Below are positions 8,027 to 22,693 of a stretch of 24,000 nt of DNA, piece after piece. This stretch comes from Alphaproteobacteria bacterium (GTDB lineage: Bacteria > Pseudomonadota > Alphaproteobacteria > Rickettsiales > UBA3002): positions 1 to 24,000 of the forward strand of contig JALHRI010000011.1 of NCBI GenBank assembly GCA_022841525.1. The letters run 5' to 3'. Numbering within the stretch: position 1 is the stretch's first letter; every line of letters begins with the position of its first letter. Both the position numbers and the translations under genes were made by a program. Under the pieces are notes generated by a model that was not told the origin of the DNA, did no database searches, and saw only the letters and a program-made list of their open reading frames with translations.

Positions 8027-8338
8027 ATGTTCTCATCCGATACTGACTTTCACAGCGTTGCCACGGCAACCCTGCAAGAGCTTCTCACCAAACTGCAACC
8101 GGCGTTTGATCAAGGCATGCTTGAAGAGCTGGATCTTGAAAACGGCGTGATGCGCATTGAGCACAGCGATGCGCGCAAATGGGTCGTGAACCGGCACGAA
8201 GCCTCAAAGCAGATCTGGCTGGCATCGCCAACGCTGGGCGGCCTGCATTTTTCATGGAATACGCAGCAGCAGCAGTGGCAACTTGCAGATGGTCGCGCAC
8301 TTGCGGAGATACTCATTAGTGACATAGGCCTGTCATGA
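8027..8338 (+). CDS. cyaY: Frataxin-like iron-binding protein CyaY
   Basis: The small acidic protein MFSSDTDFHSVATATLQELL...QIWLASPTLGGLHFSW matches the CyaY/frataxin pattern (E. coli MNDSEFHRLA...QVWLATKQGGYHF, from memory). An alternative ATG lies at 8009. The stop overlaps the next gene's start (ATGA). Confidence 0.8.
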   Translation: MFSSDTDFHSVATATLQELLTKLQPAFDQGMLEELDLENGVMRIEHSDARKWVVNRHEASKQIWLASPTLGGLHFSWNTQQQQWQLADGRALAEILISDIGLS

Positions 8339-10287: not shown

Positions 10288-12288
10288 TTATCTAATCATC
10301 ACATCGGCACGATCAGGGGCACCGGAAGGCACATTGTGCCCCATGGCCTGCACGTTGATTTTCAGCTGATCCACCCCTTCGCGAATCAGGAATGCACGCA
10401 CTGCCAGCGCGCGCGACATCGAGATGCGCCGAGCAATCGATGCTTCATCCGGCGTACCTTTGGCGTAGGCGGTAATGCGTACCGAATTTCCTTTTTCCTT
10501 CATGGTTTTTGACAGCGCTACCAGTTCTGATTTTGCCTCAGAGCTCAGCTCTGTCGCATCGGATGCAAAGACAATCGTGGCTGCTTTACTGCCCATCGCG
10601 CCAGAAGCAGGGGCTGGTGCAGGCGCAGGCGCTTTCGGCGCAGATTTAGGCGCTGCCAAAGGTGGGGGAGATGTTTTTTCAGGCGCTTTTTCCACGTTTG
10701 CAGGCGGCTTAGGCAGCTCAGCGGGCGGTGGCAATACCGGCAAGGCGGGAGCCAGTGCCGGTTCAGCACTGGATGGTTTTACCCCAGGCAGGGGTGGCAA
10801 AGAAGCAATCACCGTTTTTTCAGAAATATCCGGCTTGGGGCGCACTTGTTTTGGCGCTGGCGCCATTGGCGCAGGCGTCGGCAGTGGCGGCGCTTTTTTG
10901 ACAATTGGCGTAATCGCCAGCGGCGAGGCAGAAGGCTCAGGCAGCGGTGGCAGCGTAGCGGGTGGCAGCTTCTCTTGTTGAGCAGCGGGCTTGTCAACGC
11001 TTGCAGCGGCTGCTTTCTCCTCACCGCGCGTCACTTTAGGAAGCGCGTCTGCGACCGGATTAATCGTGCGCGTTTCATCCCTCAGCGTACCTTGTGTCGC
11101 CGGTTCTTTGGTGAACATTTTCTCCATCCGCGCGGAAATAGATGGCAGCATTTTCGGCGCTTCTTTGCGCGTGGTGACATTCGCGGGCACCTCCACCTCC
11201 GGCACCGTTGCAGCTTTCTTCACCACCATCGTTTCCACCGGTTTACCCAGTAATTGCTGCGGCGATAGGCCTTCGAGTTCGCCCGCCGGCTTCGACGTTT
11301 TCATGCCGGAAAAATCAAGTCCGGCCAGGCTGGGGGCTGGCGGTGCGCTGGGTAGAGCAACCGCTGCAGGTGTAGGAATAGGCGCGGCAACTGGCGGCGG
11401 TGGTGGCGGCGGTGGTGGCGGCGCTTTCATCAACGCATCAATCTCGGGGAGTTTTTTGGCAGGCGCTGGCGCGGGAACCACTGGCTTCTCTAGCGGTGGT
11501 AATGTCGGTAATGTTGGAATAGGTGCTGGCGCAGCTTTCACGTCAGGCGGCGGGCTCAGTTTCGCAAGCTGTGCCGGCTTGGGCGCAGGCGGTGCAGGCG
11601 GTTCTTTGGGCGATTTGGGCGCTTGCGCCGCAACCATCGGCGGTGCAGGAGGTGCAGCAACAGCAGGTTCAGGCGCTTTCACGATCGGTGGTGGCACTGC
11701 TTTTTTCACCGGAATCATCATCGGTGCGGTGCTGATTTTTGGCGCTGCCGCTTGCGGTACGGGTGCTGGCGGCGGTGGCACGGTTGCTGGCGGCGGCGCG
11801 GCGGCGGCGACTGTTTCTTTCACGTCTGCGGTAGCCATTGCTTTGGGCGCAGGCTGGCTGACGCGCGCGGCACGGCGCGGCGCAGTGGCAACGACGCTGC
11901 GGCGCTCTGGTGCTGGCGGCGCTGCACTCGATGCCTCCGATAAAATATGTGCCGGCGACTCACCGCGCGCAAAAGGCGTACCCGTACCCAACGGCGCGGC
12001 GGCGATGGCTACCGCGGCCGGAGCCGCCCCATCCGCCGGCAGTGCCACGGGTGGTGCATAGGGCTGATCACGCGGCACTTTGCGGATTTCGGCCGCCGAT
12101 GCCGGCGCAGATGCTACAGGCACCCCGCGTAATTTACTAAGCACATCGAGGTTAAGCTCAACACTGGGCGCGGCGCTTGGCACGCGACCATAGCCTGCAG
12201 ACTGAGCATACGCCGTAGGCGCAGCACTTGCCATCAGCAGCAAGGCCGCAGCAAACGGTAAAGAATGTATGAGCTTTTTCGCGCGCAT
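10288..12288 (-). CDS. OmpA/MotB-family peptidoglycan-binding protein with a very long Pro/Ala-rich region
   Basis: I placed the start at the ATG at 12288, giving the Sec signal peptide MRAKKLIHSLPFAAALLLMASAAPTAYAQ. About 560 aa of P/A/V/K-rich low complexity follow, including a run of 10 Pro. The C-terminal OmpA-like domain reads ATIVFASDATELS...RITAYAKG...RRISMSRALAVRAFLIREGV. The upstream 47 codons in the ORF track look non-coding. Confidence 0.85.
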   Translation of the reverse strand: MRAKKLIHSLPFAAALLLMASAAPTAYAQSAGYGRVPSAAPSVELNLDVLSKLRGVPVASAPASAAEIRKVPRDQPYAPPVALPADGAAPAAVAIAAAPLGTGTPFARGESPAHILSEASSAAPPAPERRSVVATAPRRAARVSQPAPKAMATADVKETVAAAAPPPATVPPPPAPVPQAAAPKISTAPMMIPVKKAVPPPIVKAPEPAVAAPPAPPMVAAQAPKSPKEPPAPPAPKPAQLAKLSPPPDVKAAPAPIPTLPTLPPLEKPVVPAPAPAKKLPEIDALMKAPPPPPPPPPPVAAPIPTPAAVALPSAPPAPSLAGLDFSGMKTSKPAGELEGLSPQQLLGKPVETMVVKKAATVPEVEVPANVTTRKEAPKMLPSISARMEKMFTKEPATQGTLRDETRTINPVADALPKVTRGEEKAAAASVDKPAAQQEKLPPATLPPLPEPSASPLAITPIVKKAPPLPTPAPMAPAPKQVRPKPDISEKTVIASLPPLPGVKPSSAEPALAPALPVLPPPAELPKPPANVEKAPEKTSPPPLAAPKSAPKAPAPAPAPASGAMGSKAATIVFASDATELSSEAKSELVALSKTMKEKGNSVRITAYAKGTPDEASIARRISMSRALAVRAFLIREGVDQLKINVQAMGHNVPSGAPDRADVMIR

Positions 12289-12522
12289 GCCGTAATAAAT
12301 TCCAGTGAGCCCAGAGTGTTTTTGCTTTGACGAGAAGTCTAGCAAACGCCCCCCCTCAGGCAAGCTGGTCTGGGCGATGTGTGGTAAAATGTGCATAACT
12401 TGACCGCGAATCCATGCAGCGTTTTGCATGGGTTGCGATGCGCACGTCAGTAATTTGCTGATGTGACTATCAACTCACGGATTGCGCTTGCTCTGCAGGG
12501 CGCGATCTATTAAAGCCTCGCC

Positions 12523-16842: not shown

Positions 16843-18804
16843 TCACCTCTGTGCCGCCTTCACCAACTCGGCGACCACTTCTGGGTTCAACAATGTGGAA
16901 ATATCGCCCAGATTCTCGGTATCACCCTCGGCGATTTTGCGCAAAATGCGGCGCATAATTTTGCCGGAGCGTGTTTTGGGCAGCGCGGGCGTTAGCTGAA
17001 TAATGTCTGGGGCTGCGAGCGCGCCAATCGTGTTTCGCACATGTAACATCAGCGCTTTTGCCTCTGCCTCAGCACCTTCTTTTAAGGTCACAAACGCGTA
17101 AATACCCTGACCTTTAATATCGTGCGGGAAGCCCACCACGGCGGCTTCTGCCACCGCTTCATGCGCCACCAAGGCCGACTCAATTTCTGCCGTGCCTAAA
17201 CGGTGACCGGATACGTTAATCACATCGTCCACTCTGCCGGTGATCCAGTAATAGCCATCCGCATCGCGGCGCGCGCCATCGCCGGAAAAATACGTGCCTT
17301 TCACGGTGGAAAAATAGGTCTGCTCGAAGCGCGCATGATCGCCCCAGATGCTTCGCGCCTGCCCCGGCCAACTATCTGTGATACACAGCAACCCCTCGCC
17401 TTCACTCTCGATGCGCGCACCTGCGGCATCAAACAGCGCGGGCTGAATCCCGAAAAATGGCAGCGTCGCGCTGCCCGCTTTGGTAGGCGTGATGCCTGCA
17501 ATCGGCGTGATCATGTGGCCGCCGGTTTCGGTTTGCCACCAGGTGTCCACCAGTGCGCAGCGCGCACCTCCCACCACGTCATGATACCAGTGCCACGCTT
17601 CGGGATTAATCGGCTCGCCAACACTGCCAAGCACGCGCAAACTGGCGCGTGACGTGGATTTGACAGGCGCATCGCCGTAACGCATCAGCGCGCGAATGGC
17701 CGTAGGCGCCGTGTAAAATTCAGTGACGCGGTGACGATCAATCACCTCCCAAAAACGCGACGGCGTGGGATGCGTTGGCACGCCTTCAAACATCAGCGTG
17801 GTGCAGCCACCAAGCAGCGGGCCGTACACTACATACGAATGTCCGGTGATCCAGCCAACATCGGCAGAGCACCAGAATACCGAATCGGGCTGAATCGCAA
17901 ACGTAGTGCGGTGGGTATGCGCGGCGTACACCATATAGCCACCACATGTATGCAGCAGGCCTTTGGGCTTACCCGTCGATCCGGAAGTATAGAGAATAAA
18001 GAGCGGGTCTTCAGCATCCATCGTTTCCGGTGCGCAGCTAGCCGCTTGCTTGGGCACGAGTTCATGCCACCAGTGGTCGCGACCTTCCTGCATCGGGCAA
18101 TCCGCACCGGTGTGACGGTACACAAGCGTGCGGTATCGTAGCTCCTCCTCCCCTTGCGGGGGGAGGCTGGGAGGGGGGGGAGTGGAAGAGTTCCGTACCC
18201 CCCGGGTCACCCCCCCCCCCCCCGCCCCCGTAAAGGGGGAGGGAGTTTCAAGCAACGCATCAATCGCTCTATCCACCTGAGCTTTGAGGGCGATAGCTTT
18301 GCCGCCACGCATCACCTCATCGGCGGTGATGATGAAGCGGCTGCCGCCATCTTCCATCCGCGCGCGAATGGAGTCGGGCGCGAAACCGGCAAACACCACG
18401 CTGTGCACCGCGCCAATGCGCGCGCAGGCGAGCATGGCGTAGGCGGCTTCCGGCACCATTGGCATATAAATGGTAACCACATCGCCGCGCTTGACGCCGA
18501 GTTGTTTCAGCGCGTTTGCCACGCGGCAGACTTCATCGTGCAGTGTCTGAAACGTGATGTGGCGGATATGGTTCGCATCATCGCCTTCCCAGATAATCGC
18601 GGTTTTATTCGCCAGAGCCGGCAAATGCCGGTCAATCGCATTTTCGGTGATGTTCAGCGTCGCCCCTTCAAACCAGCGAATAGAAACCGGCGAATGAAAC
18701 GAGGTGTTTTTGACCGTGTGCCAACGCGTGCGCCAGTGGAAGCCTTCGGCGATGGTTTCCCAGTAGGCCGCAGGGTTGGTGATGGAGTGTGCGTACGTTG
18801 TCAT
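16843..18804 (-). CDS. acs: Acetyl-CoA synthetase (AMP-forming) with an in-frame repeat-element insertion
   Basis: 653 aa, collinear with Acs throughout ([83 protein letters not shown]). The exception is residues 187-221. Confidence 0.95.
18142..18245. mobile_element. G/C-run palindromic (MITE/RPE-like) element of about 105 bp inserted in frame in acs
   Basis: The two arms are imperfect reverse complements built from C-runs and G-runs (module CTCC(C)TCCCC-TTNC-GGGGG...). Local hairpins lie at 18147-18166 and 18225-18239. There is a C14 run at 18210-18223 and a G8 run at 18173-18180. The mobile-element interpretation is an inference; the boundaries are approximate. Confidence 0.55.
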
Positions 18805-18813
18805 CGCCCAAGC

Positions 18814-18882
18814 CTACAGCTAACAGCTTACAGCTTACAGCAAAAAATATGCTATTGAGCTGTCGGCTGTCGGCTGTTAGCT
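18814..18882. repeat. Inverted pair of heptamer tandem arrays (NNACAGC x4 / GCTGTNN x3.4) around a 17-nt A/T-rich spacer
   Basis: Array A is ctacagc taacagc ttacagc ttacagc (18814-18841). The spacer is aaaaaatatgctattga (18842-18858). Array B is gctgtcg gctgtcg gctgtta gct (18859-18882). The arms can pair over about 24 bp, with two T-C mismatches and two G-T/G-U wobble pairs. Together they fill nearly the whole 86-bp acs-truA divergent spacer. Confidence 0.9.
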
Positions 18883-20791: not shown

Positions 20792-22522
20792 CTATTTAAA
20801 CGCCAGCCCTGCGCCTTCTAACTTTTTAAACGCCAGCCCTGCGCCTTCTAACTTTTGCTGGCTTGCAAGCGGACCACTATAGTTTGGCGGTATGAGTTGA
20901 CCACTCAGATCGCCCTTGATTTGCTGAGCAGCGCCTTCATACGTGACGCCCCCATTTGCAAAAGCGCTTTTTACTTGCTCGGGCGTCGGCAATGCAATCT
21001 CTCCGGCGTCGGCGCGCAGACCCAACCCATCGCCCAGGAAAATCTGCTTGCCCTGGTTTGCTTGCTCAATCGCCAGTTTCAGCGCCAGATAGGTAAAACC
21101 ATGATGCGGCATCCCCGCGTAATGATCCTTCAGCAACTTGCCAAGCGAATCACCCGACTGGACTGTGTATTTTCCAGTATCAGAAGGCGACGCAACTTCT
21201 GCTGGAGCTGCTGCTGCGGGAGATGCTGGTGTTGGTGTTGGTGCTGCTTGAGCTGGTGCTACTGCTGCTGGTGTTTTGGCATTGGGTGATGTAGCGCCTT
21301 TAGAAGCTGCGGCGATTGGCGGCGCAACCACTGATGGTATTGCCGGAGAACCCTTATCTCCTTGCGATGCAACAGGAATGAGCGAGGAATTATTCGGGTT
21401 AGCCCCGGCCACAAGTTTGTCAATAGCCTCTGGTGTGCGTGTATTCAGTGGACTTGGGGCTGCGTCTGAAGAAATCACGATCTGTGAAGGGTTGTTTTGA
21501 TTTGCTACAAAAGCATCAAATGCTTTCTTGTCTTCAAACGTTTGAAGCACAGAGTTGTCAGAAGCTTTCTGAATCACCACCTTGCCGTCATCTTGCTGAA
21601 TTACCCGGTAGCCATTGTTTTCTGAAATAGTTTCTCCAGCAATCACTGCTGGTGTTGGTGCTGGTGCGCCTACTGCTGGTACTTGTGCGCCTGCTGCCGG
21701 TGCTGTTGCGCCTGCTGCTAGTACTGGTGGCTGTGCTGGATTCAATCGCGCGGAGGCTTCAGCCATCAGCTGGCGAGCGACTGAAATACCCGTAGCGCCG
21801 CCATCATTAGTGTTATTCCTTGCTTCATTTGCTTGCTGAACAAAATGTGCACGGTGTTTTGTAAATTCGTCAGATACAATCAGACTGGGGTTACTTCTTA
21901 AAGAAGATACCGTCATCGCGGCGGCATAAGCATCAGCATGTTCAAGTTGTGCAGTATCACCAGAAGCTGCAGGTATCTGACTGAAATCTGTTTTAGAGTC
22001 TGAGCCGTAATATTTTTTGTAAGCTGCGGTTACAGACTCATTGCCAATTGCTGGAAGCACCCGATCAACTGAAACCTCTTGAGCCGGAGCTAAAACCCCT
22101 ACTATGGAGGCCTGATTCGGATATTGACGCTTAAGGTTAGTTAGTAATTCTGATTTTTTTTCATGAGATATATAATCACCATATTTTTTTTGGAAGCCTA
22201 CCTTATCTTTTATAGCTTCGTCTACTAGCGTCTTAACGGCTAGTGCGTTTAAGAGTGTGCCATAATCTATACTCTTAGCTTCCTCTCTTTCGAGAAGAGA
22301 TACTTGTCCATCACCATCTCTATCGATGGGATCATCAGCCAGAAACCTTTGTAACAAACCATCACCTGGTACATTGTGAGTAAGGCTGCCATCTGCCTTT
22401 TGTTTACCGAGCAGTTGAATATAGCCATTAGGCGGCAAAATATTCGTTAAGGTTCCACCCCCGATTTTCTCAAATACAATTTTCTCAGCTTCTGCCCTTG
22501 TAATGCCAGATGGTGCTTCCAT
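20792..22522 (-). CDS. Composite hypothetical protein: N-terminal domain with an EF-hand-type Ca-binding loop, Pro/Ala linkers, C-terminal LysM-like domain
   Basis: I placed the start at the ATG at 22522 (GGAG with a 6-nt spacer); the ORF track starts at a GTG at 22534. DRDGDGQVSLLE fits the 12-residue EF-hand loop consensus. YTVQSGDSLGKLL...IALP resembles a LysM domain with an insertion. I see no N-terminal signal peptide. The N-terminal half is visibly A+T-rich. Confidence 0.7.
   Translation of the reverse strand: MEAPSGITRAEAEKIVFEKIGGGTLTNILPPNGYIQLLGKQKADGSLTHNVPGDGLLQRFLADDPIDRDGDGQVSLLEREEAKSIDYGTLLNALAVKTLVDEAIKDKVGFQKKYGDYISHEKKSELLTNLKRQYPNQASIVGVLAPAQEVSVDRVLPAIGNESVTAAYKKYYGSDSKTDFSQIPAASGDTAQLEHADAYAAAMTVSSLRSNPSLIVSDEFTKHRAHFVQQANEARNNTNDGGATGISVARQLMAEASARLNPAQPPVLAAGATAPAAGAQVPAVGAPAPTPAVIAGETISENNGYRVIQQDDGKVVIQKASDNSVLQTFEDKKAFDAFVANQNNPSQIVISSDAAPSPLNTRTPEAIDKLVAGANPNNSSLIPVASQGDKGSPAIPSVVAPPIAAASKGATSPNAKTPAAVAPAQAAPTPTPASPAAAAPAEVASPSDTGKYTVQSGDSLGKLLKDHYAGMPHHGFTYLALKLAIEQANQGKQIFLGDGLGLRADAGEIALPTPEQVKSAFANGGVTYEGAAQQIKGDLSGQLIPPNYSGPLASQQKLEGAGLAFKKLEGAGLAFK
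20795..20854. repeat. Perfect 30-bp direct tandem duplication
   Basis: The unit tttaaacgccagccctgcgccttctaactt occurs at 20795-20824 and again at 20825-20854. The first copy begins immediately after the TAG stop (20792-20794) of the minus-strand gene. The duplication encodes KLEGAGLAFK twice. Confidence 0.97.
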
Positions 22523-22693
22523 AACGCTCTCCACGACTAGAAATTAGTAAAGTCCACCTCACCCTAGCATCCAATTGTTACACATTTATTAAGATGGATA
22601 AAATTTTTGTAATTTTTGCTGGATGATCACGATCCCCACCATCCACCGCTTCTTGTTTGCATGGCACGGCAATGTCGGCTAAGAATCCCATCT

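Follow-up and report, generated by a model that had tools for sequence, protein, structure and literature searches.

The acs gene and the block within it

The window, that is, the whole stretch of DNA analysed here, is 24,000 nucleotides (nt) long (contig JALHRI010000011.1 of the alphaproteobacterial assembly GCA_022841525.1), and this study concerns a palindromic block of C-runs and G-runs that lies in frame within acs, the gene encoding acetyl-CoA synthetase (Acs). The gene and the parts of the block are listed below. L numbers denote loci and P numbers denote proteins throughout.

16843..18804, minus strand: acs, acetyl-CoA synthetase of 653 amino acids, host of the block; an open reading frame (ORF) with 100% identity to P0001, the homologues of which have the Pfam domains ACAS_N, AMP-binding and AMP-binding_C
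18142..18246, no strand assigned: inserted palindromic element of 105 nt, acs codons 187-221; two convergent arms around a short spacer
18142..18180, plus strand: left arm; hairpin CCTCCCC-TTGCGG-GGGGAGG (18147-18166, 7 bp), then the G-rich tail CTGGGAGGGGGGGG (18167-18180, including G8)
18181..18209, no strand assigned: spacer AGTGGAAGAGTTCCGTACCCCCCGGGTCA between the arms; in full-length units a DUF559 gene occupies the same position
18210..18246, minus strand: right arm, which reads CTCCCTCCCCC-TTTAC-GGGGG-C-G14 on the minus strand; hairpin CCCCC/GGGGG at 18225-18239
18210..18223, no strand assigned: C14 homopolymer (G14 in the mRNA), encoding Gly-Gly-Gly-Gly inside GAGGGGV

The product of acs matched Salmonella Acs (2P2F) with an E-value of 2.5e-253, and its core and catalytic motifs are invariant and intact in the alignment of homologues. 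Its named relatives, which come from Alphaproteobacteria, Pseudomonadota, Rhizomicrobium, Pseudochelatococcus and in one case Rickettsiales (P0120), all show 60-64% identity. The G+C content of the window is 47-63% per kb.

Amid ordinary acs codons, positions 18142-18246, a codon-exact span of 105 nt, are built nearly wholly of C-runs and G-runs: G6 at 18158-18163, G8 at 18173-18180, C6 at 18198-18203 and C14 at 18210-18223. C14 and G8 are the homopolymers of at least 8 nt inside the acs ORF, and no G/C run of that length was found elsewhere in the 24 kb. The inverted arms at 18142-18177 and 18210-18245 are 36 nt each and 72% complementary, with a centre near 18193, and the left arm is directly preceded by GTAG. 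The first-pass annotation had described 18142-18245 with respect to its runs, arms, hairpins and in-frame residues 187-221, and every factual statement in it holds. Its view of the block as two inverted copies of one module is also borne out and can be sharpened; that is, each arm consists of a hairpin and a G-rich tail, the tails point inward, and the arms converge.

The block exceeds what chance produces in DNA of this composition. Over 60 nt at a time, G/C runs of 4 nt or more reached a peak density of 0.55, whereas 300 dinucleotide shuffles of the window never went beyond 0.38; the longest G/C run was 14 nt, compared to a maximum of 10 nt in the shuffles. The mRNA-sense strand of the block gave a predicted fold of -77.6 kcal/mol, with a z-score of only -2.7, because any sequence composed of G/C runs folds strongly. 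A permissive Rfam search returned no known RNA family, only generic sub-threshold hairpin matches to microRNA precursor models.

Insertion into a surface loop of Acs

Extra residues at the position of the block, which we call loop 1, were found in 4 of the 119 best Acs homologues. The segment is absent from the Acs of L123, which is 77% identical and lies in a syntenic Fur-MucR-TruA-Acs neighbourhood. When the window Acs was aligned with Salmonella Acs (PDB 2P2F/1PG4), the alignment split at this point, and residues 182-225 of the query (44 residues) stood against crystal residues 207-216 (10 residues). Because most orthologues, including the syntenic one in L123, are without the segment, the comparison supports reading the block as an insertion in acs rather than as ancestral sequence, as the first-pass annotation had supposed by comparison with enterobacterial Acs.

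In the AlphaFold model, residues 189-221 have a predicted local distance difference test score (pLDDT) below 50 and lie between a helix (173-186) and a strand (225-229). The insert is thus modelled as a low-confidence surface loop, and the mapping onto an Acs structure that had been proposed earlier places it at a loop of the crystallised protein. The block is free of stop codons in 4 of the 6 reading frames, which helps to explain how it was tolerated once its net length was a multiple of three.

A dispersed family of hairpin-and-tail repeats

The left arm carries an exact 19-mer core, GGGGGAGGCTGGGAGGGGG, which we scanned in one genome per species. At least 120 stretches matched. By estimate, 4 to about 100 matches are expected by chance, depending on composition, and the count by itself could therefore be owed in part to G-rich genomes. 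Among the matches listed, which is the scope of the counts in this paragraph, the 19-mer occurred in Chloroflexota, Deinococcus, Alpha-, Beta- and Gammaproteobacteria, Bacteroidota, Spirochaetota, Planctomycetota, Geomonas, Oscillospiraceae and others. A complementary C-arm lay 3-12 nt upstream in 93 of 130 copies, and a second, inverted arm lay 21-95 nt downstream, giving a doublet like that of the window, in 25 of 130. Across the 98 copies anchored by a C-arm, the only conserved upstream positions were C at -2 (96 of 98, though not needed for pairing) and T at -1. Copies were numerous in several genomes, such as those of Dyella tabacisoli and Chloroflexaceae H28_384. This hairpin context cannot be due to chance, and the window block is a member of a dispersed repeat family.

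A different origin would be that a low-complexity loop grew in place by slippage. The block does consist of simple runs, and the window holds no second copy. This origin is disfavoured and we find it scarcely credible, because an exact 21-mer and the arm architecture are common to elements in unrelated genomes and genes, because the orthologues carry the segment in a patchy distribution, and because a profile built independently from arms beside DUF559 genes (described below) matches both arms of the window.

Several further observations were made on the family. An element occupies the same syntenic position in two Dyella species (L021 7538 and L068 485) with the 19-mer core unchanged, which may be either an old insertion with a conserved core or the result of gene conversion. 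Arrays of arms resembling BIME-like clusters were seen in a Crenothrix metagenome-assembled genome (MAG) (L083 1340-2030, alternating A and B arms downstream of DUF559), in Enterobacterales CwR94 (L030 5560-6000, three tandem doublets) and in Luteimonas (L064 1950-2400, a 222-nt tandem).

In-frame copies in other genes

Copies inside genes were counted only when Pfam domains were present on both sides, and many stop-free frames in high-GC genomes lacked such domain support. An inside-gene location was verified for 5 of 129 scan copies, and most copies, among the matches listed, are intergenic. In-frame copies were found in the PolA linker of Azonexus (L115), in the DUF3418 domain of HrpA (L024), in the SbcC coiled coil of Dechloromonas (L041) and in the MoeA N-domain of Rhodanobacter (L119). 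In L002, a doublet of the family, ASSPSPALAGEGRGGG...TTPSLTLPPAGRGD (8100-8220), lies in frame in an HprK-like gene 2 kb upstream of acs, and this genome has at least three coding palindromes within 22 kb.

Repeated insertion into Acs loops

Loop 1 carries the G/C-run family in three Acs proteins, namely P0001 (the window), P0012 (L002) and P0019 (L124), the pairwise identity of which is 62-63%. The inserts of the window and L002 have the exact 21-mer GGGGGGAGGCTGGGAGGGGGG in common, while the two Acs proteins are 63% identical. The nearest relatives of each loop-1 carrier (71-83% core identity) are without the insert. When the window copy was compared by global alignment with the copies of L002 and L124, the reading antisense to acs scored higher than the sense reading (42 vs 25.5 and 41.5 vs 30.5, respectively). 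The window copy thus seems to be inverted relative to the other two, and a separate insertion event is therefore indicated. We also tried the differences between A-arms and B-arms as a marker of orientation, which was partly dropped since the arms of one unit are nearly identical.

In the closest relative of the window Acs, P0002 (79% identical), this loop is occupied by an unrelated palindrome, TCATCCCG...CGGGATGA, which gives IPAFAGMTG on translation. It represents a second repeat family at the same landing site. At the DNA level this palindrome is nested (L001 1142-1260, GTCATCCCG..CGGGATCTCCG...CGGAGATCCCG..CGGGATGAC).

Palindrome-type inserts also occur in loop 2 of Acs (six proteins) and in loop 3 (three proteins). 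The loop-3 insert of L002 (10950-11025) and L206 consists of paired hairpins (CCCCGCC-loop-GGCGGGG) of a third family, in frame between FDYH and GDIFW. It is present in both L002 and L206 (83% core identity) and absent from L207; it is therefore older than the loop-1 insert of L002, and it is decaying. A different kind of enlargement was seen in P0007, an 814-residue Acs homologue in which about 170 residues (AVHSVVFGGF...GPLANGA) are exactly duplicated. The duplication probably stems from faulty assembly rather than from the insertion of a repeat.

Association of the arms with DUF559 genes

We clustered 2406 ORFs from 118 element loci, in stretches of up to 8 kb around the scan copies. The only recurrent gene adjacent to the elements was that of a small DUF559 protein; clusters of ABC transporter, histidine kinase and DnaX genes were dismissed as abundant paralogues. 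No recurrent transposase or RAYT was found among these ORFs, although this is a limited test given the length of the stretches, and none was seen in the 24-kb window.

The DUF559 gene adjoins arms in five scan loci, from Devosia (L070), Luteimonas (L064), a Deinococcus (L019), Crenothrix (L083) and an unclassified MAG (L091). Two of these loci, L070 and L091, have one arm upstream of the gene and an inverted arm downstream; in L019 the orientation of the arms is reversed, with the tails outward. The element-adjacent proteins fall under NCBIfam NF007294 (the E. coli YcjD type) and also have a match in the solved structure 3HRL, and DUF559 has been classed with Vsr and a group I intron homing endonuclease (PMC3424549).

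A metagenome scan with an alignment of the element-adjacent DUF559 proteins returned 80 loci. Within 200 nt of the DUF559 gene, hairpins of C-runs and G-runs were present on the upstream side in 61 of the 80, on the downstream side in 59, and on the two sides together in 47, compared to a background density of 0.22 hairpins per kb at more than 300 nt from the gene. The two arms of a unit have mutually reverse-complementary loops, their G-rich tails face the gene, and they are nearly identical within the unit. The arms are therefore terminal inverted repeats, in the same layout as in the window. The full unit is about 0.5 kb, and gene-less copies far outnumber the gene-carrying ones.

We then built an arm profile solely from 120 arms of DUF559 flanks. 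In the window it matched 18142-18187 on the plus strand (E = 9.6e-5) and 18246-18207 on the minus strand (E = 1.2e-3), and nothing else had an E-value below 0.05. Since these matches fall on exactly the two arms, the insert appears to be derived from a DUF559 unit and to lack its gene, in the way that REPINs relate to RAYT genes.

The spacer between ycjD and fabI of E. coli K-12 holds a comparable module, CCCCTCGCCCCTCT-GGGGAGAGGG-TTA-GGGTGAGGGG, which was present in every one of 5426 complete genomes and occupied a median of 17 places in each. In the same region (L205 3760-3920), the last approximately 50 nt of ycjD are partly duplicated past its stop codon (aatgaggagacggtgctggagaatattctg... 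vs aacatggagacggtgctggagaatattcgg...), and a repeat module lies on either side of the duplication, which gives the impression of a rearranged unit. In L091 (2535-3317) and L083 (968-2095), the DUF559 frame remains open through the flanking arms or arrays for hundreds of codons, and gene callers may fuse such repeat-derived Pro/Gly peptides to the nuclease. In the literature searched, we found no report connecting DUF559 or ycjD with repeats, or this repeat core with a gene.

Interpretation of the insert and of the DUF559 unit

Taking these results together, we consider it probable that a dispersed palindromic repeat gave rise to the block as a copy lacking the gene, which inserted where acs encodes a permissive surface loop and now yields a Pro/Gly-rich loop of 35 residues in the protein. 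The acs copy would represent the two ends of an approximately 0.5-kb DUF559 unit with the gene missing, that is, an internal-deletion derivative of the MITE or REPIN kind. The family would be mobile, and the Vsr-fold DUF559 nuclease may recognise the folded arms and promote their moving or copying. The survival of the insert within acs may be attributed to the combination of a surface loop, a net length that is a multiple of three and the small number of stop codons in G/C-run sequence. Mobilisation by DUF559 is the part of this scheme that we infer from the association.

Several points weigh against this interpretation. No further copy of the module and no DUF559 gene were found in the 24-kb window. 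The junctions in the window, the DUF559 units and the comparison of L002 with L206 and L207 all showed no target-site duplication, with the exact element boundaries uncertain in each case; relative to the empty sites of L206 and L207, loop 1 of L002 had about 18 nt of host sequence replaced and not duplicated. (A possible remnant of the host loop in the L002 spacer, the common GCATG, was judged to be chance.) The E-values of the arm profile are modest and its composition bias is high, and the 80 DUF559 loci were collected with element-adjacent queries, so that the association holds for that subfamily only. To our knowledge, no PD-(D/E)xK nuclease of the DUF559 type moves such repeats, and the association is compatible with dependence in either direction between repeat and nuclease.

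It is also conceivable that the repeat family is real and inserted but that DUF559 is not its mobiliser, a possibility to which we give some weight while doubting it. In one form, the nuclease would be a homing-type passenger that targets the centres of doublets; in another, the hairpins would be terminators or regulators of the gene; in both, the repeats would be spread by another enzyme or by host recombination or replication. The grouping of DUF559 with Vsr and a homing endonuclease speaks for this possibility, as do the outward tails in L019. The gene is always at the position of the doublet spacer, as would be expected equally if it had entered a doublet or if doublets arose by its deletion from a full unit. 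On the other hand, no other recurrent gene, notably no transposase or RAYT, was found near 120 element copies, and the near identity of the arms within each DUF559 unit suggests copying of the unit as a whole.

A broader proposal can be made, which we advance only tentatively and hold to be less than probable. Hairpin-tail modules and DUF559 might together form a hitherto unrecognised class of mobile element that crosses phyla, in which units of about 0.5 kb would be autonomous and many singlets, as well as doublets of about 100 nt, would be without the gene. The nuclease would act on folded or cruciform arms, perhaps at built-in mismatches, and gene-less copies would repeatedly colonise permissive loops of core enzymes in frame, thereby seeding new disordered protein segments. 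In such a class, BoxC and ycjD of E. coli would be the enterobacterial version.

The C14 tract

The longest G/C run in 1.04 Mb of element-rich loci was 9 nt, and C14 is thus an outlier for the family. The family consensus is GGGGGAGGG-TT-GGGGAGGGG, its tails read GGGGGAGGG-TT-GGGG(A/T)GGGG, and the right-arm tail of the window, GGGGG-C-G14, is four substitutions away from it, as if the tail had been fused into one G run. Most likely, C14 is a by-product of tail decay. A one-base change in C14 or G8 necessarily breaks the acs frame, and this leaves the gene frameshift-prone.

In this respect the tract resembles homopolymer contingency loci, in which a one-base change in a G/C tract such as this 14-nt one within an ORF shifts the frame. 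One might suppose that C14 and G8 make acs a phase-variable contingency gene in which slippage toggles acetate activation under selection. The tract is inside an ORF, is at present in frame, and is far above both the family maximum of 9 and the shuffle maximum of 10. We nevertheless regard this as unlikely, because acs is a core metabolic gene and atypical as a contingency locus, because C14 can be derived from the family tail by the substitutions mentioned above, and because long tracts are absent from the other acs genes with the insert. Unlike that of contingency loci, this tract forms part of a decaying repeat.

The block, or at least the lengths of its homopolymers, could also be an artefact of sequencing or assembly. 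Long G/C homopolymers are error-prone, C14 is an outlier, and the protein cluster of the window Acs has a single member, from one 43.8-kb contig. However, acs is continuous on both flanks and its frame is held through 105 nt, whereas a wrong tract length would lose the frame two times in three; moreover, independent assemblies have the same family in the same Acs loop. An artefact is in our judgement very unlikely. As C14 is atypical for the family, the caveat about assembly error that was attached to these runs from the beginning still stands.

Comparison with known repeats

Rickettsia palindromic elements (RPE; Ogata et al. 2000, as cited in PMC3184786) are, according to that account, palindromic repeats of about 100-150 bp that lie in frame in housekeeping genes, are tolerated as surface peptides and occur in many genes per genome, and the window element is like them in its behaviour. 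Unlike RPE, the present family consists of C-runs and G-runs, occurs in many phyla far outside Rickettsia and has a gene-carrying DUF559 form. We know of no sequence relationship between this family and the RPE families. It is unlikely that the window element belongs to them, and the likeness would be one of behaviour. The RPE-like behaviour suggested by the first-pass annotation stands as an analogy only, in that the same family lies in frame in several housekeeping genes of other bacteria. With respect to the type of event, the acs insert is a new example of a known one, an RPE-like coding palindrome.

REP/REPIN repeats reportedly go together with RAYT transposases, a relationship said to have been described by Nunvar in 2010 and by Bertels and Rainey in 2011. 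The present family resembles that system in its short hairpin units, its inverted doublets of about 100 nt, its many gene-less copies and its nuclease gene flanked by inverted units. It differs in that the associated gene encodes a Vsr-fold PD-(D/E)xK protein, DUF559, and not an HUH/Y1 transposase, in that no family-level GTAG or CGTC tag was seen in 98 copies, in that each unit has an extra G-rich tail, and in that copies occur inside genes. REP elements have been surveyed elsewhere (PMC3733652). Delihas's RU-3 was considered as a description of this family and rejected as REP/BIME-related.

The ycjD-fabI module of E. coli has the same layout as the family, that is, a C-arm, a loop, a G-arm, a linker of 2-3 nt and a G-tail. 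It is probably the BoxC repeat, which was reportedly first described next to envM (fabI). BoxC in E. coli is 50-56 bp long with 22-32 copies (PMC2267715) and has been described as an intergenic enterobacterial repeat of unknown function. We found no report in the literature tying BoxC to ycjD, to spread across phyla or to in-frame copies.

Bacterial MITEs (miniature transposable elements with inverted repeats), such as Correia/NEMIS, ERIC and Nezha, have been reviewed (PMC3184786, PMC10969869). The present elements are like MITEs in that they are about 100 nt long and non-coding, have terminal inverted repeats, share their ends with a longer gene-carrying form and include some ORF-fused copies. 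They are unlike MITEs in that the gene-carrying form encodes no known transposase, and they may also differ in that no target-site duplication was seen. A hairpin family that crosses phyla, is tied to DUF559 and repeatedly colonises the same enzyme loops is likely to be a new variant of the theme of a repeat plus a nuclease.

Other features of the window

Just upstream of the acs start, in the intergenic region between acs and truA, lies another palindrome (18818-18882), the arms of which (AGCTAACAGCTTACAGCTTACAGC and GCTGTCGGCTGTCGGCTGTTAGCT) measure 24 nt each, are separated by 17 nt and have 83% complementarity, with short tandem heptamers in each arm. It might act as an operator or as a shared site of regulation. 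On the minus strand, 20792-22534 is an ORF of 580 amino acids without a Pfam match, and 10288-12429 is an ORF of 713 amino acids in which only a C-terminal OmpA domain was recognised; the latter overlaps the most G+C-rich kilobase of the window (11001-12000, 0.63).

Significance

In-frame palindromes in housekeeping genes have been treated mainly as a curiosity of Rickettsia. Here a single G/C-run family shows this behaviour in free-living Proteobacteria, with copies in Acs, PolA, HrpA, SbcC and MoeA. For annotation, G/C-run blocks explain odd Pro/Gly-rich inserts and flag frameshift-prone tracts. The three loops of alphaproteobacterial Acs that have been hit repeatedly by several families provide a natural map of where the enzyme tolerates 20-40 extra residues. 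If the link to DUF559 is true, it would offer a testable function for a very common uncharacterised nuclease family, including YcjD of E. coli, and a partner for an orphan repeat, probably BoxC; the family would then be a second repeat family with a single nuclease gene, besides REP-RAYT.

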